NCBI GenBank assembly: GCA_024277525.1 | Contig: JAJRUZ010000008.1 | Coordinates: 20,091-84,090 of the forward strand | Length of the DNA stretch: 64,000 bases | Origin: a candidate division WOR-3 bacterium | GTDB lineage: Bacteria > Hydrothermota > Hydrothermia > Hydrothermales > JAJRUZ01 | Reading direction: 5' to 3' | Shown here: in pieces, positions 25,891-52,338 of the stretch | Position numbering within the stretch: position 1 is the stretch's first letter | Layout of the letters: each line of letters begins with the position of its first letter | Notes under the pieces: model-generated | What the model saw: the letters and a program-made list of their open reading frames with translations, nothing else | Databases searched by the model: none | Told to the model about the DNA's origin: nothing | Made by a program: the position numbers and the translations under genes

Positions 25891-26592
25891 ATGAAATGGG
25901 AAGATTTGAATGAAATTGAATTTAAAGAAAAAAAATTTAAAAGGGCTTTTCTACCTGTCGGAACCATTGAATCTCACGGAATAGGACCCCTTGGAACAGA
26001 CTGCATTGTGCCGTATAACTTGTGTATTGACCTTGCTCCATTGTTTGACGGGGTTGTTCTTCCTCTCCTTCCCTATGGAATAACTTCCGGATTATACGGA
26101 AGACCTGGTTCAATTTCTTTGAGTTCTGATACTTTTGAAAGGTTAATTTTTGAGATAATCACCTCTGTTTATAAGAACGGAATAAAGGAACTTTTCATAA
26201 TGAACGGACACGGAGGGCAGATAACAGAATTAAAAAATGCATCAAAAAGAGCACATTTTGAAACAGGTATAAAAATTTGTGTGCTCAACTGGTGGATATG
26301 TGCAGAGGAAATTTCTGATAAATATTTCGGGAATATGACAGGGCACGGTGGAGCGGATGAAATTGCAATGGTTTATGCAAAAAAATCTTTTAAAATTGAT
26401 TTTAAAAATGCAAAAAGTTTTTCAAAATTAAAAGGTATAGACATTTTTCCATATCCTTACGGAATGTTATTATATAAAAAAGGAAAAATTAAAAAAGGAT
26501 TTGAAAAGTTAAGCAAGAAATATTACAGGGAGGTGCTGGAGTATCTCAAAAAATTAATAAAAGAGATAATAGAGGGCTGGGAGAGTATGTAA
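25891..26592 (+). CDS. Creatininase-family amidohydrolase.
   Basis: LPVGTIESHG...NGHGGQ metal-binding motifs typical of the creatininase/ArfB/MftE family. Confidence 0.65.
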   Translation: MKWEDLNEIEFKEKKFKRAFLPVGTIESHGIGPLGTDCIVPYNLCIDLAPLFDGVVLPLLPYGITSGLYGRPGSISLSSDTFERLIFEIITSVYKNGIKELFIMNGHGGQITELKNASKRAHFETGIKICVLNWWICAEEISDKYFGNMTGHGGADEIAMVYAKKSFKIDFKNAKSFSKLKGIDIFPYPYGMLLYKKGKIKKGFEKLSKKYYREVLEYLKKLIKEIIEGWESM

Positions 26593-26674
26593 TCCTTTAT
26601 TGTTTTTTTCAATTTCTCATTGTATAATAAATTCACGGGTTGGAGCCCCTTTTAATTCTATTTAAAAAATAAAA

Positions 26675-27997
26675 ATGACACAACTTGAATATGCAAAAAA
26701 CGGTAAAATTACGGATGAAATGATTTTTATTGCAAAGGAGGAGGGTAAGAAACCCGAGGAGATAATGGAACTTGTTGCTTGTGGAAGGGTCGTTATTCCG
26801 CGAAATATAAATCACACGAATCTTGAAAAATTTTGCGGAATAGGTGAAGGTTTAAGAGTTAAGATAAATACGAATATCGGAACTTCTTATGAATATGTAA
26901 ATATTGAGGAAGAAATTGAAAAAGCAAAAACTGCGATAAAATACGGAACAGACACTTTGATGGACTTATCCACGGGCGGAGACCTGAAGTTAATAAGGCA
27001 GAAGATTCTCGAAATCTGCACCGTTCCCTTGGGCACGGTTCCGATTTATGAGGTTGAATTTAAAGTTGCAAAAGAGAAGGGTTCTATTTATGAAATGACT
27101 GCTGATGATTTATTTAAAGTAATTGAAGAACACGGAAGACAGGGAGTTGATTACATAACGGTTCACTGTGGAATCACATGGGAAACTTTAAAGAGATATC
27201 AGAATTCAAAGAGATTAACAGGTATCGTTTCAAGGGGAGGAGGTTTAATTGCTGCCTGGATGCTTGAAAACAGGGAAGAGAATCCGCTTTATAGGTATTA
27301 CGACAGATTGCTTGAAATTGCAAGGGAATATGATATGACACTTTCACTCGGAGACGGTTTAAGACCGGGGTCACTTCATGATTCAACCGATAGGGCTCAG
27401 ATTGCAGAGCTTATGATAATCGGGGAACTTGTTGAAAAGGCAAGAAAAGCAGGGGTTCAGACAATGGTAGAAGGTCCCGGGCACATTCCTTTGAATGAAA
27501 TTGAGATGAATGTTCAGATTCAGAAAAAATTGACAAATTATGCTCCTTTTTATATTCTCGGAATGGTTCCTGCGGATGTTGCGGCGGGTTTTGACCACAT
27601 TGCAGGGGCAATAGGCGGAGCGGTTGCAGGATGGCATGGTGCTGATATGTTATGTTATGTTACACCTGCTGAGCACCTCGGACTCCCTACGATTGAGCAC
27701 GTAAAACAGGGGGTTATTGCCTTTAAAATTGCTGCTCATATTGCAGATATCGCAAGAGGAAACAAGGAAGCAATTGAGAGAAACAAAAAAATGAGTGAAG
27801 CGAGGTATAAATTGGATTGGGAGAGACAATTTGAACTTGTTTTATTCCCTAAGGAAGCGAGGGAGATTTACAATCAGAGAAAAAGCGGGACAGAAGCATG
27901 TTCAATGTGTGGTCCCTTTTGTCCGATGAATCTTGTCGAAAAGACCTTAAAGAAACACAAAATAGAAAAATTTGAAGAAAAAAAAGTGAAAATTTAA
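26675..27997 (+). CDS. thiC: Phosphomethylpyrimidine synthase ThiC.
   Basis: 440 aa with ThiC hallmarks, including the C-terminal CxxC-X4-C radical-SAM-like cluster (CSMCGPFCPM). Confidence 0.9.
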   Translation: MTQLEYAKNGKITDEMIFIAKEEGKKPEEIMELVACGRVVIPRNINHTNLEKFCGIGEGLRVKINTNIGTSYEYVNIEEEIEKAKTAIKYGTDTLMDLSTGGDLKLIRQKILEICTVPLGTVPIYEVEFKVAKEKGSIYEMTADDLFKVIEEHGRQGVDYITVHCGITWETLKRYQNSKRLTGIVSRGGGLIAAWMLENREENPLYRYYDRLLEIAREYDMTLSLGDGLRPGSLHDSTDRAQIAELMIIGELVEKARKAGVQTMVEGPGHIPLNEIEMNVQIQKKLTNYAPFYILGMVPADVAAGFDHIAGAIGGAVAGWHGADMLCYVTPAEHLGLPTIEHVKQGVIAFKIAAHIADIARGNKEAIERNKKMSEARYKLDWERQFELVLFPKEAREIYNQRKSGTEACSMCGPFCPMNLVEKTLKKHKIEKFEEKKVKI

Positions 27998-28134
27998 GTT
28001 TGACAGCCATTTATTCTAAATACTGAGAGGGTGTTTGAATAAGAGAAGTTGACATAAGATTCTTTAAAATCGAGATAAAAACCTCTATCGGATTTAAAAG
28101 AAGCAGGATGGGCAAAAAGACAGCAGGGTTATTA

Positions 28135-28250
28135 TGTTTATTGAGTTTACCAGTGTCCTTGTGTTAATCGTGTTTATTGGGTTTGTCGGGTTTATTGTGT
28201 TCTTCGCGTTTGTTGGGATTAATTGCGTTCATTGAGTTTAAAAATTTATT
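28135..28250 (+). repeat. Tandem array of degenerate 9-bp units (TTTATTGGG, TTTGTCGGG, TTTATTGTG, TTCTTCGCG, TTTGTTGGG, ...), about 12 units.
   Basis: Direct reading shows a strict 9-nt period with G at unit positions 7 and 9. Confidence 0.8.
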
Positions 28251-28261
28251 TTACGCGATGA

Positions 28262-28548
28262 ATCATCGCTACAAATCAGATAGGAGGGAAAATAAATCTT
28301 TGATGATATAAACTCCAGATAATCAGAGAATCTATCATTCATTTTTATCCTGTCAAGGAAACTCTTTAAAACATACATTCCCTTTTTCAATCTTATAACC
28401 TTTCCACTTTTCTCCAGCCTTGATAAAGCAATTTTAAGATAATAATTTCTTATCCCAGTATCTCCAGATTTTTCTTTGAAAAATAGGGCAAATCTTTAAC
28501 ACAATCAATTATTTCATCCACAATACTTTTAAAATCTTCATTTCTCAT
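28262..28548 (-). pseudogene. Decayed AbiEi-like (type IV TA antitoxin, wHTH) gene remnant with multiple frame breaks.
   Basis: Hand translation gives MRNEDFKSIVDEIIDCVKDLPYFSKKNLEILG, a stop, IRNYYLKIALSRLEKSGKVIRLKKGMYVL, and further breaks. This resembles the AbiEi N-terminal domain (...L..LG.s...lsrL.kkGkl.rl.rGvY..). No intact ORF exists. Confidence 0.35.
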
Positions 28549-28600
28549 GGTATACAAATATTGTATACTATTGGAAATCAATTTTCAAGTTTCCTTTTAA

Positions 28601-28632
28601 TTGGGTTTTTTGCGTTCATTGTGCTTGTTGGG
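28601..28632 (+). repeat. Short copy of the 9-bp repeat family (TTTTTTGCG TTCATTGTG CTTGTTGGG).
   Basis: Direct reading. Confidence 0.6.
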
Positions 28633-28648
28633 TAGAAACTCCCCTTTC
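28630..28648. other. Hairpin CCCCTTT-cttta-AAAGGGG, followed by GGGGCAGGGGA.
   Basis: Perfect 7-bp stem. Confidence 0.5.
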
Positions 28649-28753
28649 TTTAAAAGGGGGCAGGGGATGTTTAAATTCTCTTGAACTAAAGTCATTTTTT
28701 ATTACACTCTAAGGGTGTAATTAGAGTTAGGGGTCTTCAGAAATTACAACAGT

Positions 28754-28963
28754 TTATTTACTTGTGGTGGGTATAATTATATTAAGTTCTCCTGTGGGAA
28801 TGAGATTATGTAAAGAAGCATTTAAAAACTCTATACTTACTGGCTCACCTTTTTCATTATAACTAACAATTACACCTCCAGGTTCTTCAATAGCATCTAC
28901 GGGTGGATCATCTTTAAATACAATCATTAAAACATCTGACTCGGGATCATACTTTATTTTCAT
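28754..28963 (-). CDS. DUF2283-family protein (predicted antitoxin partner of DUF4258).
   Basis: MKIKYDPESDVLMIVFKDD...GVIVSYNEKGEPVSIEFLNAS matches the DUF2283 pattern (MKI.YD.e.D.lyI...). Confidence 0.7.
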   Translation of the reverse strand: MKIKYDPESDVLMIVFKDDPPVDAIEEPGGVIVSYNEKGEPVSIEFLNASLHNLIPTGELNIIIPTTSK

Positions 28964-28964
28964 A

Positions 28965-29222
28965 TCATTCCTCCTTAAAGTATTTTTTAATTTTGGTAGT
29001 ATAATAAAAAGTTATTATTTTTTTCTCATTTCCTGAAGATGTGAATATTACCCTTAATAGCCCTTTAGTCCACTTTTTCTGAGCTATTACAGTATTCATA
29101 TCACCTGCCACTACTTGAGCAGGATTTTTAAGCACATTTTCTACAATTTCTTTTGTAATTCCCATTTTTTTCTCCCATTCTTTTTGGCGTTCTTTCGCAT
29201 GTTTGGCCCATATAATTTTCAC
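28965..29222 (-). CDS. DUF4258-family protein (predicted toxin of the DUF4258/DUF2283 pair).
   Basis: 85 aa, MKIIWAKHAKERQKEW...; separated from the DUF2283 gene by 1 nt. Confidence 0.6.
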   Translation of the reverse strand: MKIIWAKHAKERQKEWEKKMGITKEIVENVLKNPAQVVAGDMNTVIAQKKWTKGLLRVIFTSSGNEKKIITFYYTTKIKKYFKEE

Positions 29223-29291
29223 TCAAAATATTATATTCCTTCAAGTCAAATTTTTCAAATATATTCAAATTGCAATTTTTATACTTCTGAG

Positions 29292-29450
29292 GTGTTTATC
29301 GCGTTTTTTTGCGTTTGTCGCGTTTGTTGGGTTTATAAATATGCGGGACGAGCGGGACGGGCGGGAAAAGCGAGAGGGGTTTGTTGCGCTTTTCGGGCTT
29401 ATCGTGTTCATTGGGTTTTTCGTGTTTATTGGGTTTTTTGCGTTGATTAT
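29292..29450 (+). repeat. Composite repeat element. A left arm of 9-mers (TTTATCGCG, TTTTTTTGCG, TTTGTCGCG, TTTGTTGGG) is followed by a TTTATAAATAT core. Then come four GCGRGANNN units (GCGGGACGA, GCGGGACGG, GCGGGAAAA, GCGAGAGGG), a right arm of 7 units (GTTTGTTGCG...TTTTTTGCG) and a TTGATTAT terminus.
   Basis: Direct reading. The layout is the same as the copies at 29587, 47062 and 49372. Confidence 0.85.
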
Positions 29451-29586
29451 ATTCTGTTTAAGCTCCATTTACAGTTTATCTTCCTTTAAATAATAAAAGC
29501 TGGCATAGAGCTCTTAAAAAGATTTTGAAATCTAAATAAAGGCTTCTGTTTTTAACATAATAAAGGTCATATTCCTGTCTATATAT

Positions 29587-29664
29587 GTCTATTGCGTTTA
29601 TAAATAGGCGAGAAAAGCGAGAAAGGCGGGAAACGCGAGACGCGTCTATTGCGTTTTTCATTTG
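29587..29664 (+). repeat. Compact copy of the same element: GTCTATTGCG, TTTATAAATAG, GCGAGAAAA, GCGAGAAAG, GCGGGAAAC, GCGAGACGC, GTCTATTGCG.
   Basis: Direct reading; it abuts the 3' end of the wecA-like gene. Confidence 0.85.
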
Positions 29665-30710
29665 AGATTTTTTAACTCTTCCTGTTTCTGGTAAGGGAAT
29701 TTTTCGAATATTCTTATGAGAATTAAGCCTGTTATGATTATTAAGGCAAAAATTGTATAGGAAATCCAGAATTCCACCCTGTAAATAAATACTGAAAACA
29801 TTCCACCCAAAAATCCCAGAAAATACATTAAAAGAACCGTTGTTTTCTGGCTTAAGGAAAGATTGTATAATCTGTGATGCACATGGTCTTTTCCGGGATG
29901 TAAAAAGGGAATTAGTCCTCTTTTTGCTCTTGAAATTGTTATTAAACTTGTGTCAAATATCGGAACAATAAGTATTAAAATCGGTATCATCCATCGTGTC
30001 AAAACAGGTAAAGTTTCCGAATTTGCAACTCTTAATCCAAGGGCAGCAAGTAAAAATCCCAGAAATATTGCTCCTGAATCTCCGAGAAAGATTTTTGCAG
30101 GATGAAAATTATAAATAAGGAATCCAAGGGAGGCTCCCATGAGTGCAAGGGAAAGGGTTATAAGAATAATATCTCCTGTTTTTAATCCGAAAACAAAATA
30201 AAAGGTTGAAGCAATCACTGCAATACCTGAAGAAAGTCCATCCATTCCGTCAAGAAGGTTATATGCAGCGGTTATTCCAACAACCCAGAAAATTGTGAAT
30301 AAGTAATTTAAAATTGAAACATTAAAAATTTTTAAATGAAGGTTAAAAAATATCAAAATTAATCCTGCAATGGGCATACCCACCATCAATTTTATCTGGG
30401 GATGAATTTTCCCCATATCATCAAAAAGTCCTATCACAAGAAGCATAACAGCACATCCGAAAATAACAAAGAGTTCTTTATTGAAAGGATTATGAAAAAA
30501 CAAAGGAAAAATACCCGCAATAACACCAAAAAATACAGCAACACTGCCGAGGAGGGGAATGGGAGTTTTGTGGATTTTTCGGGGATTGTCAGGATGGTCA
30601 TAGATTTTGAAATGGATGGCAATACTTTTTACCACAGGAACAAGAATTAAACTTGTCAGAAAAGACAGAATAAGAGAAATCATATTCATATTCATATTTA
30701 TATTATTCAA
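29658..30710 (-). CDS. wecA: UDP-HexNAc:undecaprenyl-phosphate HexNAc-1-P transferase (WecA/MraY-type polyprenyl-phosphate glycosyl-1-P transferase).
   Basis: 350 aa with 10-11 TM helices and MraY/WecA loop motifs (DDMGKIHP, NLLDGMDGL). Confidence 0.7.
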   Translation of the reverse strand: MNNINMNMNMISLILSFLTSLILVPVVKSIAIHFKIYDHPDNPRKIHKTPIPLLGSVAVFFGVIAGIFPLFFHNPFNKELFVIFGCAVMLLVIGLFDDMGKIHPQIKLMVGMPIAGLILIFFNLHLKIFNVSILNYLFTIFWVVGITAAYNLLDGMDGLSSGIAVIASTFYFVFGLKTGDIILITLSLALMGASLGFLIYNFHPAKIFLGDSGAIFLGFLLAALGLRVANSETLPVLTRWMIPILILIVPIFDTSLITISRAKRGLIPFLHPGKDHVHHRLYNLSLSQKTTVLLMYFLGFLGGMFSVFIYRVEFWISYTIFALIIITGLILIRIFEKFPYQKQEELKNLK

Positions 30711-43077: not shown

Positions 43078-44316
43078 TTATCTCTTACAGTACCATTTTT
43101 TTACAAACTCCTTATATTCCCTATCACTCTCCCTCACCTTCCTCCACCACCATTCATTCTCCACATACCATTTAACCGTCCTCTCAATTCTATCCTCCAA
43201 CCCCCAACCCCTAACCCCTAATTCCGAATCCCCAACCCCTAACCCCAATTCCCTAATTTTACTATCATCAATACTATATCTCCTATCATGCCCCGGTCTA
43301 TCTTTTACAAATTTTATCAAAGATTCGGGTTTTCCTAAAATTTTTAAAATCATTTTTACAATTTCTATATTTTCTCTTTCATTTCTTCCTGAAATATTAT
43401 AAACTTCACCTATTTCTCCTTTTTCTATAACTAAATCAACTCCTCTGGCACAGTCTTCAACATATAACCAATCTCTTTTTTGTCTGCCGTCTCCGTATAC
43501 GGGTAATGGTTTATTATTTAAGGCATTTATGGTCATCAAAGGAATTAATTTTTCGGGATATTGATAGGGACCAAAATTGTTGGATGGTCTGATGATTATG
43601 ACAGGAACTTTATAAGTATTGTAATATGCAGAACACAACCTGTCTGCTGCTGCTTTACTTGCTGAATACGGATTTTTAGGATTTATAGGGTCTGTTTCTT
43701 TAAAACTTACACCTTCAGGAGCAGGTCCGTAAACTTCATCGGTTGAAATATGGATGAATTTCCACACATTTTTATTTTTTCTTAAAGATTCAAGAAGAAC
43801 ATAAATTCCGTATACATCGGTTTTTATAAATGCATCAGCCTTTATTATTGACCTGTCAACATGAGTTTCAGCAGCATAATGAACAATTACATCTGATAAA
43901 CTGAAAAGAATATCCGTAACCTCTCGGTCCATAATATTTCCTATTACAAAAATTAACCTTTCTTCCTGAAGTAAATCCTGAACAACATCTTTTAAATCGG
44001 ATAATTTAACAAAATTTACTTTATAACCTTCTGTTTTTAATTTTATTCTTTCAAAATCTTCATTTAAGTTTTCTATTTTTACTTTTGTCTCTTTATCCTC
44101 AAAAATTCTTTTAACATTTAAAATAGTTTCCTGTTCGAGGGGAAATATTATGTTATCTTCATTTAAATAATCTTTTAAATTATCCAGATTTCCGGCATAG
44201 GTTAAAATATCAAGAACTATTATTTTATCGTTTGAATTTTTTAATTTATACCTTACAAATTCGCTACCCATAAAACCGGCACCACCGGTGACTAACAGGG
44301 TATAAGATGTGTTCAT
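43078..44316 (-). CDS. rfbB: dTDP-glucose 4,6-dehydratase with a ~60-aa insertion and a repeat-derived C-terminal insert.
   Basis: TGGAGFMGS Rossmann motif, catalytic YxxxK (YSASKAA), and the C-terminal WY..N.WW motif. Confidence 0.85.
   Translation of the reverse strand: MNTSYTLLVTGGAGFMGSEFVRYKLKNSNDKIIVLDILTYAGNLDNLKDYLNEDNIIFPLEQETILNVKRIFEDKETKVKIENLNEDFERIKLKTEGYKVNFVKLSDLKDVVQDLLQEERLIFVIGNIMDREVTDILFSLSDVIVHYAAETHVDRSIIKADAFIKTDVYGIYVLLESLRKNKNVWKFIHISTDEVYGPAPEGVSFKETDPINPKNPYSASKAAADRLCSAYYNTYKVPVIIIRPSNNFGPYQYPEKLIPLMTINALNNKPLPVYGDGRQKRDWLYVEDCARGVDLVIEKGEIGEVYNISGRNERENIEIVKMILKILGKPESLIKFVKDRPGHDRRYSIDDSKIRELGLGVGDSELGVRGWGLEDRIERTVKWYVENEWWWRKVRESDREYKEFVKKWYCKR
43186..43262. 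repeat. G-rich (sense strand) in-frame tandem duplication GAATT(G/A)GGGTTAGGGGTTGGGG inside rfbB; G-quadruplex-prone.
   Basis: Direct reading; it encodes ELGLGVGDS-ELGVRGWGL in place of the usual ELGW. Confidence 0.7.
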
Positions 44317-45564: not shown

Positions 45565-45747
45565 TTGATTTTATTTTAAAATTCTTCTTCTTTTTGTCAC
45601 TATTACAAGATAAAGTTCACCGTTTCTGGTGTCATTATATTTTTATAAATGTTCCGAAGGCTGCAAGGGAAATGAGATTTTTTCCATAGGTTGAAACAAC
45701 CTTCTTTTTTATTTGATTGAGTATGTTAGTTTTTTTCTTGGTTTTTA
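45565..45747 (-). pseudogene. Frameshifted paralog of the MNT-like mini-protein encoded at 49497..49793.
   Basis: Hand translation gives MKNLKTKKKTNILNQIKKKVVSTYGKNLISLAAFGTFIKI, a stop, then NDTRNGELYLVIVTKRRR in another frame. Compare IKKKIVSIYGDDLVSLVAFGPSIRTNFEEKEVYLVIVTK in the intact copy. Confidence 0.4.
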
Positions 45748-45998
45748 AGTTTTTCATGGGTTTTAATTAATTTGTTTTGATCTTATTATTAAATATAAAA
45801 TTTCCCATTTCGCATTCCGAATTCCGAATTTTCCTTTTCACCATTTTATCAATCCCCCTTTATCCCCCTTTTCTAAGCTGAGATCACCCATGATTTTTCC
45901 TAATAAATCACTGTATTACTTGTATAAAATTAAAAATGAAGTTATAATTCAGTCTTTAAAAAGATATTGTTAAATTGTCACATAAATGCGACCGCTAC

Positions 45999-47061: not shown

Positions 47062-47180
47062 ATAATCAATGATTGAGTTTATAAATATGCGAGGCGGGCG
47101 AGACGAGTTTATTGGGTTTATCGGGTTTATAGAGTTTATTGGGTTTGTTGCGTTAATTGCGTTTGCTGTGTTCATTGAGA
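47062..47180 (+). repeat. Repeat element: AATCAATGATTGAG, TTTATAAATAT, GCGAGGCGG, GCGAGACGA, then 9-mers GTTTATTGG, GTTTATCGG, GTTTATAGA, GTTTATTGG, GTTTGTTGCG, TTAATTGCG, TTTGCTGTG, TTCATTGAG.
   Basis: Direct reading. Its AATCAA end (reverse complement TTGATT) together with the palindrome CCATTATAATGG (47038-47049) forms a -35/-10-like pair for the MNT-HEPN operon on the minus strand. Confidence 0.8.
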
Positions 47181-47625: not shown

Positions 47626-47652
47626 AATTTTTATATTACACTCCCTTTAATT

Positions 47653-47669
47653 GTGAATGCAATATTCAC
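47653..47669. promoter_or_regulatory. Palindrome GTGAAT-gcaat-ATTCAC about 28 nt upstream of hicB; candidate operator.
   Basis: Perfect 6-bp inverted repeat read directly. Confidence 0.35.
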
Positions 47670-47757
47670 GCTTTACCACACATCTCACAATTTTATCAAT
47701 CAACGCAATAATCCCGACAAACACAACAAACGCGATAAACACGACTCGCATTTTTAA
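47660..47757 (-). repeat. Repeat-element copy in reverse orientation. The reverse complement reads TTGATTAAAAATGCGAGTCGTGTTTATCGCGTTTGTTGTGTTTGTCGGGATTATTGCGTTGATTGA.
   Basis: Direct reading; it shares TTACCACACATCTC with the copy at 46036. Confidence 0.7.
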
Positions 47758-47773
47758 TCAATCCCCCTTAATC

Positions 47774-47801
47774 CCCCTTCGCCAAAGGGGAGAATTTTTT
47801 T
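47774..47801 (+). terminator. Hairpin CCCCTT-cgcca-AAGGGG followed by AGAATTTTTTT (intrinsic-terminator-like, plus strand). It is part of a 34-nt exact duplicate of 49318-49351.
   Basis: Stem, loop and T-tract read directly. Confidence 0.45.
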
Positions 47802-47846
47802 ATTTCCTTTTTCACCGTAAACCCATCCACTCACCGTTTTGCTTTC

Positions 47847-47890
47847 CTCCTTTCTCGCCTTTCTCGCATTACCACCCGTCTCGCATTTTA
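47847..47890 (-). repeat. GCGAGA-array module in reverse orientation (reverse complement: AAAATGCGAGACGGGTGGTAATGCGAGAAAGGCGAGAAAGG); it supplies the last codons (MRDGW, stop) of the DUF4143 ORF.
   Basis: Direct reading. Confidence 0.7.
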
Positions 47891-49153
47891 ACCCATTTCC
47901 AGAAAGGTAATACTCTGCAGGTTATACCTTCTTTTTTTTCTTCATATTCCTGATCACGGGTTATTATTATTCCTGATTTTAGGTTTAAAAATTTACAGGC
48001 TTTTATAAGCCCTTCTATCTCCCTTTTTTTATTTTCTGAATTTATCTCCCATGTGACCTGGATTGCCTGCAATTTGCCATTATTTTTAACCACAAAATCG
48101 CATTCGCCATCTTTATTAAAATAGTATATCTCATATCCTTTTCTTTTCAGTTCAAGAAAAACCACATTTTCCAGCAACCTGCCGTAATCTTCGGATTTGA
48201 CTCTTTTTGCAAGACCTGTATCAACAAGATAAATTTTTGGGTGGATTCCTCATTCTTTTATAGGAAGATTCGGAAAAAATCCTGCTTTCGTATACGAGCA
48301 TGCTTTCAAGAAAATATCTGTAGTAGGAAAAAAGGGAATCTTTTGAAAAAGGGAATTTACCTTTATATTTTTTATAGAAAGAAATAAGGGAAAATCGGGA
48401 TGAAAAGGAGGAGAAAAGGTTCTCCTGCAGGGTTTTCAGCAGGGTTATATTTGTTATATTGAATCTTTCCACAAGGTCTTTGAAGAACATTGCATCAAGA
48501 TATTGGCTTAAAATCTTTTTTCTCATGAATTTTTCTTCAATAAAAGAGACCTCAGGGAAACCACCCCATTCAAGATACTCATTAATATAAGCTTTTAAAA
48601 TTGACTTTTTTCTCCCATAAATCTCTTTTGTTTCAAATTTTTTTGCTCTTAGAAATTCGGTGAAGGAAAAGGGGTAAACCTCATATGTCCATGCCCTTCC
48701 CCTTAAAGAAGCATGTATTCTGGAAGGAGTTATCTCCGAAGAGGAACCTGCAACATAAACATCTATGTTCTCCCTTTCAACCAGTCTCCTGACAAATTTT
48801 TCCCATCCCTTTATATTCTGTATTTCATCAAATAGAAAAATTACTTTTTTTTCTTTAACAAGGCGGGAATTGAGTTCAAAGAAAATATCCTTGATTTTTT
48901 CAAGGTCATCCAGGGTTATTCCCTCAAGTCTTTCATCTTCAAAATCTATATAAAGGGCTTTTTCAGGATTTTTTTTAAATACACTGTAAAGCACAAATGT
49001 TTTGCCACTCCTTCTGACTCCATAAATGACTTTAACTTTTTTGAGTTTTTGAGGGAAAACAATACCTTCCCTCTCTATTATATTTTTTATTTCATTATTT
49101 ATAAATTCTCTGCCCGTAAGTATTATTTCTTTTATTGTATCAGAACTGACCAT
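47869..49153 (-). pseudogene. COG1373-type AAA ATPase (AAA_14 plus DUF4143) split by a frameshift into 48221..49153 and 47869..48177.
   Basis: The N-terminal ORF has a Walker A (GVRRSGKT) and Walker B (VIFLFDEIQ). The C-terminal ORF is a DUF4143-like domain. The two are in different frames. Confidence 0.6.
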
Positions 49154-49217
49154 TTTATTTTGTCCTTTTCAGAAGTATATTTTAAAGAATTTTTGTCCTT
49201 TTTTCAAGGAAAATTTT

Positions 49218-49462
49218 GGTTTATAAAAAGGCGAGACTGGCGAGAAAAGTTATTTTCATATCTTTTATTTTTTCCTTTCTTGCGTTTCTCGCATTACAAC
49301 CCGTCTCGCAGTTTATTCAATCCCCCTTAATCCCCCTTCGCCAAAGGGGAATTTGTGCGATAAATCGCACCGCAACATAATCAATCTTTTCTCGCTTTTC
49401 GCGCACGTCTCGCCTTTCTCGCATACTTGTAACACGATAAACACGATAAATACGTTAACATG
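49218..49462. repeat. Cluster of repeat modules in mixed orientation. Forward GGTTTATAAAAAG, GCGAGACTG, GCGAGAAAAG (49218-49249). Reverse GCGAGA module (49276-49312). Hairpin duplicate (49318-49351). Palindrome GTGCGAT-aa-ATCGCAC (49354-49369). Reverse full element (49372-49462).
   Basis: Direct reading. The reverse complement of 49372-49462 reads ...TTTATCGTG TTTATCGTG TTACAAGTAT GCGAGAAAG GCGAGACGT GCGCGAAAA GCGAGAAAA GATTGATTATGTT. Confidence 0.8.
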
Positions 49463-49860: not shown

Positions 49861-52338
49861 TCATTCTTTTCCATAATATTTTGAATAATATTTGTAATAA
49901 TAGTAATAATAATGGCTCCCCCTTTTCTTAGGAACCGCATTTATAACAACTCCTATGATATCGGATTTTGAAGACAATAAAATATCCCTTGCTTCCTCCA
50001 CTTCTTTAAAGTTTGTTTTTCCGTATCTTATTGTGAGAATTACACCATCCGCATAATTTGCAATATAAGCAGAATCCGCAAATAAAAGAACAGGAGTCCC
50101 GTCAATTATTACATAATCATATTCCTCTTTTAAATCCTTAATTAATTTTTTCATTTTTTCTGATTCAAGGAAAATTAAAGGATTTGCAGGAATTTTCCCA
50201 ACAGGTATCACATCTATTTTTATATCAAGCTTATCATTATGATGAGAAACATCCGTTATTGCATTTTCAATTTTTTCCTCCCCTGTTAATATGTCAAAAA
50301 GACCGGCTTCCTTTTTTATTTCAAAAATATCGGTTATATGTCCTTTTTTCTTTCTGAAATCACTGTCAATAACAATTACTTTATTTCCTTTTGAGGCATA
50401 AACAAATCCGAGATTTAACGCTACAAAGGTTTTTCCTTCTTCAGGACTCGGTGAAGTGACATAAATTACTTTGTATTTTTTATCAGGATGTGCAAATTCA
50501 AGATTTATTGAAAGCTTTCTGAAAGCCTCAAACTCCGCTGAAGAAAGGTCAGGTTCGATTATTTTTAATTCGGAACTCAAACTGTTCTTTTTAAAAATTT
50601 TACTAAAAAATCCATTCCGGTTATTTTCAATTAAAGGTATTGAGGTGTAAACAGGAAGCCCTGTTTTTAATTTTAAGATTTCAGGGTCTTTAACTGTATT
50701 ATCAATATATTCTACAATAAAAACCGTAAATCCACCTATCAATATGCTGATTATAAAAGAAAGAATAAGAATCAAAAGGGGCTTTCTTGCATTCACAGGT
50801 CTGTATGAAACAAGGGGAGGGTTTATAATTTTTAAGTCCGAAGTAACACCTGCCTCCTGTACCCTTGTCTCTTCAAGCTTCTAGGCAAAAAAGGTGTATA
50901 ATTTTTCCGTTGTCTCTCTATCCCTTTCAAGTCTTGCAAGCTGTAACTCATCCTCGGGAACATTTTCCAATTTAAGCTTTAAAGCGCTTATTTGACTTTT
51001 AACACTCTGGATTTCTGTTTTTATTGTTGATATTCTTTTTGTTATTTCTTCTTTCATCTGTTCTCTTAAGCCTTCAAGTTTTGCCTTTACCTCATAAACT
51101 TTCGGATGATTAGGAGAATAGGATTTTAATCTGCCTTTAAGTTCTGCCTCTGTTTGTAATAATTGAGAGTAAAAATTCTGAAGAACCGGATCCGAAAGAA
51201 GCGCAGGAGCAAAGTTAACGGTTGTGTCAAGTTCCTTTCCCTTTGCAAGATACTCTCCCAAATTTTTTAAAATACTCTGCTCAATCTCGAGTTGACTTTT
51301 TTTTGTTTCAAGACTCGAAATTTGGGAAATTAATGCCTGAGTAGAAGCTTTTAAATCCGCTATTTTTTTCTGCTCTTTAAAAGTCTTTATTTTTTCTTCC
51401 AGTTCAGAAAGTTTATTTTTATAAAATTCGAGTTGGGACTCGATGAATTTTCTGGACTGAATGTATTGAAGGGATTTTTCTTTTATATCTTCTTTGATTA
51501 TTAAGTCGGAAAGCACCTTTGCTATCTCATAAGCATCCTGAGGATTTCCCCAGAAAACATCTATTCTTAAAATCCCGAGAAGATTAACCCCCGGAAAGAT
51601 TGTTTTTGCAGTTACAAGCTTTTTTGAGGCTCCTTCTCCTGAAAAAGGAACACCTCCGAGTGCAGGCTCTTTTTCTATTTTATCAGCCTCCAAAACCTTT
51701 ATTGAGAGAGAATTTCTCAAAGCAAGGGCTATTCTGTCTCTGGGATAAAATGTTATGGTATAAGTTCTCTCTTTAAACTCTTTCTTTAAAGGAATTACCT
51801 TGAACTTCAAAAAGCCGATATCAAGAGATTCACCAATTTTGCCATCCAGAACCTTCTTACCATCACTTGTAAAAAGCTCCACACTATTATTTGATATTTT
51901 TAATTTAAAAGGACCGACGGGGTTCTCAAAATCCCTTATAATTTTTGTTTTTATCTTTATATCAGGCAATCCATCTTTTATATGGGTATAAAGTGAAAGG
52001 GAATCCGCAATTTTTTGAGCAAGCCTGACACTCAGGAGGTTTGATATAACTCTTTGTGTCACAGAACCGATTTGAAGGGTGGGAGTCTCCTGAACCGGTG
52101 AAAAAACACCTTCAATGGGTTTTTCATTTGAAACCCCTATGTCAAAGGTTGCCTTATAAATGGGAGTATAAGGTTTTAGAAATTGATAGAGGAGTATTAT
52201 AAAAAATGTAACCACTGCGGTTGTAATAAAAAGCCCCAGCCTTCTCAGGAATATGTTTATTATATCGTTTAAACTCAAAGTTTCTTCTTCATATGAATTT
52301 TGAAAATAAATATGATTTTTGATTTTACCTTCTTTCAT
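49861..52338 (-). pseudogene. wzc: Wzc/GumC-type polysaccharide co-polymerase fused to a BY-kinase. It has a single in-frame TAG (50881-50883) between the periplasmic/coiled-coil domain (50881..52338) and the TM2 plus kinase part (49861..50796).
   Basis: The same reading frame holds across the stop. The 28 codons between the ORFs encode the conserved pre-TM2 motif (DLKIINPPLVSYRPV). The kinase has Walker A (SPSPEEGKT) and a C-terminal Tyr cluster, YYYYYYKYYSKYY. Confidence 0.6.

Follow-up and report, generated by a model that had tools for sequence, protein, structure and literature searches.

Bacterial interspersed mosaic elements (BIMEs), together with repetitive extragenic palindromic sequences (REPs) and REP doublets forming hairpins (REPINs), are extragenic, multi-copy mosaics and known substrates of rearrangement. 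The short tandemly repeated repetitive sequences (STRRs) of heterocystous cyanobacteria are arrays of a heptamer, for example (CCCCAAT)n, and BOX elements, organized as boxA-(boxB)n-boxC, are genus-specific and consist of modules of 45–59 nt. Here we describe an arrayed 9-bp repeat in a stretch of 64,000 nucleotides (hereafter the window) from a candidate division WOR-3 bacterium (assembly GCA_024277525.1, contig JAJRUZ010000008.1, positions 20,091 to 84,090), in which four forward-strand copies occupy 28.1–29.7 kb, the gap between thiC and a wecA-like gene. The number of repeat units changes between close relatives, and the repeats persist at junctions as the cargo between them changes. We consider it moderately likely that 28.0–29.7 kb forms a zone of gene turnover at a synteny breakpoint, between a block of core genes that ends in thiC and a glycan locus that begins with wecA, where the repeats slip, recombine, and mark and probably promote gene decay and replacement.

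Repeats and gene remnants between thiC and wecA

Read directly from the DNA, the repeat copies are assembled from an arm unit (TTTRTYGNG), a centre unit (GCGRGANNN), and a junction (TTTATAAA); their coordinates are given in Table 1. The gap repeats are real and multi-copy. The arm dimer TTTRTYGNGTTTRTYGNG, allowed at most 2 mismatches, has 29 matches in the window, compared with 0.75 ± 0.86 in shuffled sequence, and the centre dimer GCGRGANNNGCGRGA has 15 where 0.15 are expected. All except one of the arm-dimer matches, and nearly all of the centre-dimer matches, fall within this gap (the first island) and a second island at 45.4–49.9 kb. Tandem Repeats Finder reported periods of 9, 18, and 27.

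A preliminary description of the window had already located four copies in the gap, all in forward orientation, and our positions and strands agree with it. Its "pure 12-unit" array at 28135–28250 does comprise about that many units, but the array is not pure, since two units are degenerate and a 1-bp insertion lies at about 28218; only six consecutive units (28164–28217) pass at ≤2 mismatches per unit. As RNA, this array is unstructured (z = +1.05). The composite element E1 had been read as a four-unit centre with a seven-unit right arm, which matches what we find: a left arm of 4 units (29296–29331), the junction GTTTATAAATATG (29331–29343), a centre of 4 GCGRGANNN units (29343–29378; three GCGGGA and one GCGAGA), and lastly a 7-unit right arm (29380–29442). 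The compact composite E2, thought to abut the wecA stop, does lie there but overlaps the stop codon (29658–29660) by ~7 nt. E2 is 78% identical to positions 29322–29394 of E1 across 73 nt.

Apart from these non-coding modular repeats, the gap contains two fragments of dead genes and a putative toxin-antitoxin pair that is apparently intact. This pair had been proposed as DUF4258/DUF2283, and whereas the DUF2283 assignment is well supported, the DUF4258 match is weak (16.7 bits against a Pfam cut-off of 25), and NCBIfam and PHROG give the pair no support. The DUF4258-like open reading frame (ORF) and the DUF2283 start lie 1 nt apart in the same orientation, with a promoter-like site upstream of the putative pair; an intrinsic terminator was looked for in the island and none was found. 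The first fragment had been described as a multiply broken AbiEi-like antitoxin. It is indeed AbiEi-like, but what remains, ~100 amino acids (aa) of the N-terminus, shows one frameshift near 28450 (three-frame translation) and a truncation at the 3' end of array 1 rather than multiple breaks. No AbiEii partner gene follows downstream, as it would in a full AbiE system.

Three further features had gone unmentioned, namely a Bac_transf relic, a REP-like hairpin, and a CCCCTTT/AAAGGGG module. The relic is the second fragment and consists of the last ~30 codons of a sugar-transferase gene, ending in …QEYDLYYVKNRSLYLDFKIFLRALCQLLLFKGR and a stop codon, enclosed by the direct repeats E2 and E1; both it and the AbiEi fragment terminate exactly at arrays. 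The CCCCTTT/AAAGGGG module resembles, by eye, CCCCCTT...AAGGGG sequences of the second island (47760–47795 and 49319–49350), and we rate its hairpin as weak because its z is only −1.2. Base composition does not set the island apart, its GC content of 0.31–0.34 being the same as that of the whole window (0.324).

Table 1. Coordinates of repeats, genes, gene remnants, and small features in the two islands of the window.
Feature	Position	Strand	Composition or evidence
thiC, core gene, left border	26675–27997	+	PF01964, E = 1.4e-190
Arm array 1	28128–28250	+	~12 TTTRTYGNG units, two degenerate (TTTACCAGT, GTCCTTGTG)
AbiEi-like antitoxin, N-terminal remnant	28238–28581	−	Joined frames match PF13338 AbiEi_4, E = 6.9e-6
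Arm array 2	28597–28632	+	4 units
CCCCTTT/AAAGGGG hairpin module	28641–28659		Folding energy −6.5 kcal/mol, z = −1.2
REP-like palindrome TTACACTCTAAGGGTGTAA	28701–28721		z = −3.8
DUF2283 protein, putative antitoxin, ORF intact	28754–28963	−	PF10049, E = 3.3e-16, 69 aa
DUF4258-like protein, putative toxin, ORF intact	28965–29222	−	PF14076, E = 0.009, 85 aa
Promoter-like TTGAAA-17-TATAAT	29230–29258	−	11/12 consensus positions, consensus match only
Composite E1	29292–29450	+	Left arm, junction, centre, right arm
Bac_transf sugar-transferase 3' relic	29476–29590	−	PF02397 positions 150–177 of 179, E = 1.5e-4
Compact composite E2	29587–29664	+	Single arm unit, then junction TTTATAAATAGG, four centre units, and two arm units
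wecA-like gene (GT4 initiating transferase), right border, where the glycan locus starts	29658–30710	−	PF00953, E = 3.6e-32
Degenerate array with TTTCGCATTCCGAATTCCGAA and ATCCCCCTTT ×2 modules	45728–45870	+	
Composite E3	47066–47180	+	Junction plus 2 centre and 8 arm units
Composite E5, inverted	47640–47890	−	Centre units, AAGGGGGATT ×2 module, 5 arm units
E4 and E6, inverted pair of centre-unit blocks	49216–49250; 49270–49460	+; −	2 arm units

The junction in related genomes

The window was compared with other members of WOR-3/Candidatus Hydrothermales, among them Ca. Hydrothermus pacificus (L066). In three lineages with a ThiC 85–88% identical to that of the window, thiC is followed after 0–10 bp by a gene for 5-formyltetrahydrofolate cyclo-ligase (5-FTHF cyclo-ligase) or a THUMP methyltransferase and, further downstream, by genes for TrpBP, GidA, IF-2B, and MetRS, with no wecA, island, or nonamer array across ~70 kb. 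The adjacency of thiC and wecA is thus a rearrangement specific to this genome. The preliminary description had proposed checking whether thiC stands directly beside wecA in close relatives; it does so in none of them, hence there is no "empty site" for the island.

On the wecA side, relatives share the repeats and differ in cargo. In L121 (an 89% relative), wecA is followed by a short array, the Bac_transf relic, and a ~9-unit array with a single centre unit, and beyond these lies a Por_Secre_tail protein gene (986 aa), followed by an array of 18 units, a gene for an AAA_14/DUF4143 ATPase, and SatD. In L123 (an 83% relative), wecA is followed by a gene for a RAYT-like (REP-associated tyrosine transposase) Y1 transposase, the relic, and a 7-unit array without a centre, after which comes the start of an MKIKY gene resembling the DUF2283 gene of the window (MKIKYDPESD). 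A three-way alignment (A3) of the window, L121, and L123 gives orthologous unit counts of 4, 1, and 0 in the centre and 7, about 9, and 7 in the arm, and shows the relic kept in both relatives and followed by arrays of differing unit number. Because relic and arrays are retained where the cargo differs, both must predate the divergence of these genomes. The description of the gap as a variable, decaying region is therefore borne out by the thiC of relatives lacking the island, by the differing cargo downstream of wecA, and by the fragments that end at arrays.

Similar differences are found at the second island, where E3 is placed between an MNT/HEPN pair and a HicB-like gene. An AAA_14/DUF4143 ATPase gene there is split into two ORFs (47869–48177 and 48221–49153, − strand), each of which aligns to the intact 433-aa homologue of L121; the split gene is a probable pseudogene. 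At the same junction, L066 carries a non-orthologous ATPase_2/DUF234 ATPase, situated between an arm array and the TTCGCAATCCGAA module that L066 shares with the second island (45728–45870). One cassette moving between junctions was rejected as an explanation, since the L121 and window ATPases share only 37–41% identity and the L066 and window ATPases 21%. Centre units, junction, and the remaining modules are specific to this lineage. When metagenomes were scanned for the junction together with the centre, one contig was found, L124, where two composites flank a HicAB pair (identified by eye).

A second, distinct repeat family occurs in the lineage in the form of ACACTCCCGGAGTGTAA hairpins, which flank the L123 RAYT homologue at 1615–1760 and 2450–2470 and are also present in L122 (2552–2568). 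The REP-like palindrome of the window (28701–28721) resembles this sequence, and the single window copy together with the L123 hairpins suggests that a separate REP family probably exists. Directly after wecA, the homologue itself (1767–2432; NF047646, with an E of 1.4e-17 that is below the cut-off) has ACACTCCCGGAGTGTAA hairpins on its flanks rather than nonamer arrays, so the arrays do not match a REP/REPIN-RAYT system, in which dispersed palindromic REP copies flank the RAYT gene; no RAYT gene is present in the window.

Gene turnover driven by the repeats could proceed as follows. Arrays would lengthen and shorten through slipped-strand mispairing and unequal exchange. As dispersed patches of homology of 50–120 bp, they may also be substrates for ectopic homologous recombination, such that recombination between same-strand copies would delete the intervening DNA and leave gene stubs against an array, and exchange with incoming or distant copies could introduce new cargo or rearrange the chromosome, including the join of thiC and wecA. 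The repeats would in this way promote the loss and replacement of accessory genes without being dedicated integration sites. Locally, such a process would explain the junk that borders and interrupts the glycan locus, with the repeats marking the points of accessory-gene loss or replacement.

Several features of the neighbourhood are recorded here in their own right. The 5' end of the wecA-like gene contains a TCATAT hexamer repeat (30680–30704) that is translated as an MNNINMNMNM N-terminal extension, and L122 and L123 have an 11-unit nonamer array just upstream of wecA in its place. No thiamine pyrophosphate (TPP) riboswitch was detected upstream of thiC (26000–26675) at E ≤ 1, and just 82 nt separate thiC from the creatininase-family gene before it. 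A homologue of TrpBP (TRAP, PF02081) lies 1–2 genes from thiC in L245 (5802–6134), L247 (9510–9842), and L249 (9091–9423), an unusual place and phylum for this protein. Exact-protein look-ups for ThiC, WecA (P0001), DUF2283, and MNT gave no record. A replication terminus at the local turn in GC skew (28–30 kb) was considered and dropped, because the skew merely follows gene strand across the window.

A wider family of nonamer arrays and competing explanations

A three-unit arm pattern searched in species-representative genomes matched at least 120 loci, from which homogeneous arrays were discounted as probably unrelated tandem repeats. Internally heterogeneous arrays were found at at least 79 loci, at least 20 of which have two or more, in at least 10 phylum-level lineages with GC contents of 30–63% (Desulfobacterales, WOR-3, Acidobacteriota, Nitrospirae, Aminicenantes, Fischerbacteria, Edwardsbacteria, Chloroflexota, Binatia, and Bipolaricaulota), including the isolate Desulfatitalea alkaliphila M08but. 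The unit profile is alike everywhere: T1, T2, T5, G7, and G9 are 75%–92% conserved, with 91% G at position 9, and across phyla A and G each make up about half of position 4, whereas any base is accepted at position 8. Arrays range from 3 to 29 units. At least 120 viral contigs also match the arm pattern, most of them in giant-virus bins with homogeneous repeats of the (TTTGTTGTG)n type; since the pattern picks up homogeneous repeats, a match to it is by itself no evidence of family membership. A BLAST search of one array against annotated plasmids and phages found no match, possibly owing to the low-complexity filter. We found no published description of such nonamer arrays when searching by sequence strings or by terms, and the main text of a paper on Pelobacter "multicopy sequences" contains no such array.

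Around 152 arrays, 150 neighbouring ORFs match 203 Pfam families, and no single partner dominates among the matches listed. The neighbours include housekeeping genes (glmS, ribosomal protein genes of the spc operon, and transporters), and 23S_rRNA_IVP, MNT, and HepT show a small enrichment only. In a glycan locus of Desulfobacteraceae (L014), nearly all intergenic gaps hold an array, including those around HEPN/MNT pairs, an arrangement like that of the window. One spc operon from Acidobacteriota carries inverted array pairs in the L6/L18 and S5/L30 gaps, which form long hairpins with z = −8 to −10, and hairpins of inverted arrays stand beside the L6 gene, in gaps of the spc operon, in three phyla (L084, 2686–2767 and 3677–3763; L063, 3868–3944 and 4360–4464; and L094), in L084 at most 4 nt from a start codon without a visible Shine-Dalgarno sequence. 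All 22 adjacent inverted pairs among the matches listed have the polarity (TTTRTYGNG)n-loop-(CNCRAYAAA)m and 0 have the opposite one, and their loops are not conserved. At the free positions of facing units, 141 of 231 are complementary in these 22 pairs, compared with 143.2 ± 4.0 after shuffling unit order; in the absence of covariation there, it is the unit motif that is conserved and not the pairing.

Pure arrays fold worse than shuffled sequence (z > 0), and in E1 the left arm pairs with the centre on the + strand over 29 bp, 10 of them G-U pairs, for a fold of −31.4 kcal/mol compared with −7.0 on the − strand. A hairpin under selection was rejected on the grounds that z for E1 is only −2.0 with 10 G-U pairs and that the free positions of inverted pairs are no more complementary than shuffled ones. 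Further candidates discarded were G-quadruplexes in the window, as most units are not GGG; a transposase carried between distant + and − arrays, which in L042 enclose glmS and in L015 ordinary genes; and binding by TRAP (TrpBP), which requires GAG at a period of 5–6 nt and is unfit for the 9-nt GAG spacing.

Arrays are also found within coding sequences. The wzc gene of L066 (2946–3008) has a 7-unit array in frame in a loop of the BY-kinase domain (…NANNAINPENPTNSINAINA…), an insert that the wzc of the window (49861–50796) does not have. In the window, a heptamer array at 43197–43256 (CCCCAAC/CCCCTAA/CCCCAAT plus ATTCCGAAT) lies in frame inside the coding sequence 43078–44316 (− strand), which we take from its sequence to be rfbB-like (dTDP-glucose 4,6-dehydratase). 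It reads GLGVGDSELGVRGWG in a normally compact C-terminal segment, its coding strand is G-rich (GGGGTTR)n, and it resembles cyanobacterial STRR1.

Several observations weigh against slippage and recombination as a complete account of the gap. Slippage alone should homogenize arrays, yet in all phyla every array retains a mixture of A and G at position 4 and leaves position 8 unrestricted, and the polarity of adjacent inverted pairs is strict (22:0); both observations suggest a constraint or a generating mechanism outside the model. In addition, a single unit shared across phyla is unusual for repeats of the REP/BIME type. The arrays are only ~65%–85% similar, which makes them a poor RecA substrate, and array recombination is deduced from end states, with no pair of genomes giving a clean before and after for an array-to-array deletion. 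The search pattern also collects unrelated homogeneous tandem repeats. Since the model leaves heterogeneity, polarity, and cross-phylum conservation unaccounted for, we retain two rivals, that of binding sites or leaders and that of REPIN/MITE-like elements (MITEs being miniature inverted-repeat transposable elements).

The first, which we hold to be unlikely, is that the arrays are functional, either as targets, placed in tandem, of an oligomeric factor that binds DNA or RNA or as unstructured A/C-rich mRNA leaders and spacers that tune translation, RNA decay, or termination, with the island merely carrying many of them. This would fit the conservation of T1–3, T5, G7, and G9 with positions 4, 6, and 8 free in genomes of 30–63% GC, the keeping of motif rather than pairing in facing units, and the occurrence of direct and inverted arrangements with fixed polarity. 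Arrays are present in essential operons and, by inspection, as close as 4–12 nt to start codons that lack a Shine-Dalgarno sequence. There is also a mild bias toward CNCRAYAAA in the sense of the gene (155 versus 102), but both orientations relative to genes are common and the counts are not independent. Moreover, arrays sit inside coding sequences, unit number runs from 3 to 29, Rfam has no family that matches the repeats, and no candidate factor is known.

A further reading is that the heterogeneous (T1T2T3-R-T-Y-G-N-G)n array, by itself or in inverted pairs of fixed polarity, forms one undescribed class of element, in at least 10 phyla, maintained by a conserved trans-acting factor, which we put forward tentatively and with low confidence. 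If so, the factor would be an oligomeric nucleic-acid-binding protein or a unit-recognizing recombinase or transposase, the window composites would be a lineage-specific elaboration, and the arrays would take an active part in organizing how genes turn over or are expressed, both in toxin-antitoxin and glycan regions and within ribosomal protein operons.

Less probable still, the arrays, and chiefly those in inverted pairs, could be mobile but non-autonomous, REPIN- or MITE-like elements that a transposase such as RAYT spreads in trans. The long hairpins of inverted pairs (z = −8 to −10), the fixed polarity of their outer ends, the dispersal of copies with some in frame in genes, and the RAYT homologue (NF047646, E = 1.4e-17) just downstream of wecA in L123 speak for it. 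However, that homologue is flanked by the different palindrome, the window has no such gene, and no recurrent transposase accompanies the 152 arrays. Target-site duplications, which the preliminary description had proposed looking for, were not found around the elements or the island, and element length and loop vary, leaving the fixed polarity of inverted pairs as the sole MITE-like trait.

The preliminary description had viewed the repeats as insertion sites for cassette-type DNA, and a specific form of this, integron-like or other site-specific recombination sites that take up toxin-antitoxin and other cassettes one by one, is in our judgment improbable. Cassette-sized toxin-antitoxin units are bounded by composites in both islands and in L124 (HicAB), and the same junction carries different cargo in relatives. 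On the other hand, Pfam scans of the island ORFs and 30 further window ORFs (all called ORFs of ≥150 aa outside the glycan locus at 30.7–44.3 kb, less two short overlapping calls) revealed no integrase, IntI-type or other recombinase, or transposase. The orientation of elements relative to cargo and downstream genes differs (E1 and E3 versus E5) where palindromic attC sites would be constant, no attC-like structure with covariation and no target-site duplications are seen, and elsewhere arrays flank housekeeping genes.

It is very improbable that the composites encode small membrane peptides like type I toxins, with a charged N-terminus from the centre and a hydrophobic F-(I/V)-(G/A/V) helix from the arm. 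An ORF (MRDERDGREKREGFVALFGLIVFIGFFVFIGFFALIIF…) does begin at the junction ATG of E1, a similar one exists in E3, and position 6 of the unit is synonymous in that frame; but the junction reads AGG in E2 and AAG in E4, L121, and L124, and position 9, the would-be wobble site, is 91% G. For this unconserved ATG and conserved G the reading was rejected. Unit number also varies freely, real genes read the arrays in the opposite strand and frame, no Shine-Dalgarno sequence is apparent by inspection, and the repeat-encoded ORFs have no Pfam match. The elements bear the marks neither of coding genes nor of site-specific cassette sites. Public gene calls list arrays as small ORFs (MKNPPNAINAMNAANSKNAINTTN…; L122, 2608–2733; L121, 4520–4819 and 6296–6445), one of which overlaps the wecA start as ATGA; these calls are likely mis-annotations, or possibly upstream ORFs coupled to the gene.

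Finally, the preliminary description had raised the concern of assembly artefacts and chimeric joins. The source genome and most of its relatives were assembled from metagenomes, repeats are classic points of misassembly, and only this contig has thiC next to wecA. Such errors are nevertheless a scarcely credible source of the repeats, given orthologous arrays with the same flanking relic in three independent assemblies, the family's occurrence in an isolate genome, and arrays in frame within otherwise intact genes.

The island is in itself a fairly ordinary decaying junction of accessory genes, and the interest lies in the repeat family, whose 9-bp unit is found across many uncultured phyla with an unchanged pattern of fixed and free positions, in essential operons and in coding sequences. 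Gene callers routinely mis-annotate its arrays as small Asn-rich or hydrophobic ORFs. A family so widespread and of such strict polarity offers a handle on the origin of short interspersed repeats, on their spread between distant bacteria, and on how they shape operons and islands.

Comparison with described repeats

Like attC arrays, the repeats separate small cargo of toxin-antitoxin type that turns over between relatives, but no integrase was found in the scanned ORFs, there is no bulged hairpin with R and L boxes and no constant orientation, and nonamer arrays also flank core genes. Like Rickettsia palindromic elements (RPEs), repeats can lie in frame and leave the gene unbroken, as in the L066 wzc and the window's rfbB, although RPEs are palindromes of 100–150 nt rather than tandem nonamers.

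Like STRRs, the family is made up of tandem arrays that are dispersed and have a very short unit; on the reverse strand the arm unit reads CCCAATAAA/CCCAACAAA, and the window has the CCCCAAT-like heptamer array at 43197–43256. The unit nevertheless measures 9 nt rather than the 7 of STRRs, is heterogeneous at fixed positions, and belongs to a host far outside the cyanobacteria (WOR-3/Hydrothermales), so that the two are alike in kind only. Pneumococcal BOX elements are likewise non-coding, dispersed, and composed of variable internal tandem modules between partly complementary ends, but they show no sequence similarity to the gap repeats and their modules, at 45–59 nt, are far longer.

BIMEs and REP/REPIN sequences are also mosaics of short modules, capable of forming hairpins, situated between the genes of operons, and variable in copy number, and the lineage studied here additionally has a RAYT homologue and a REP-like palindrome. 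They differ in being palindromes of 20–40 nt, whereas the repeats here are tandem 9-bp arrays that are unstructured when pure; REPs are species-specific, whereas the arm unit is common to many phyla; and the RAYT gene of the relative is flanked by another palindrome. As with BIME- and BOX-type elements, however, the gap repeats are non-coding, multi-copy, modular, intergenic, and variable in module number, and in kind they belong among interspersed mosaic repeats such as BIME/REP, BOX, STRR, and RPE.

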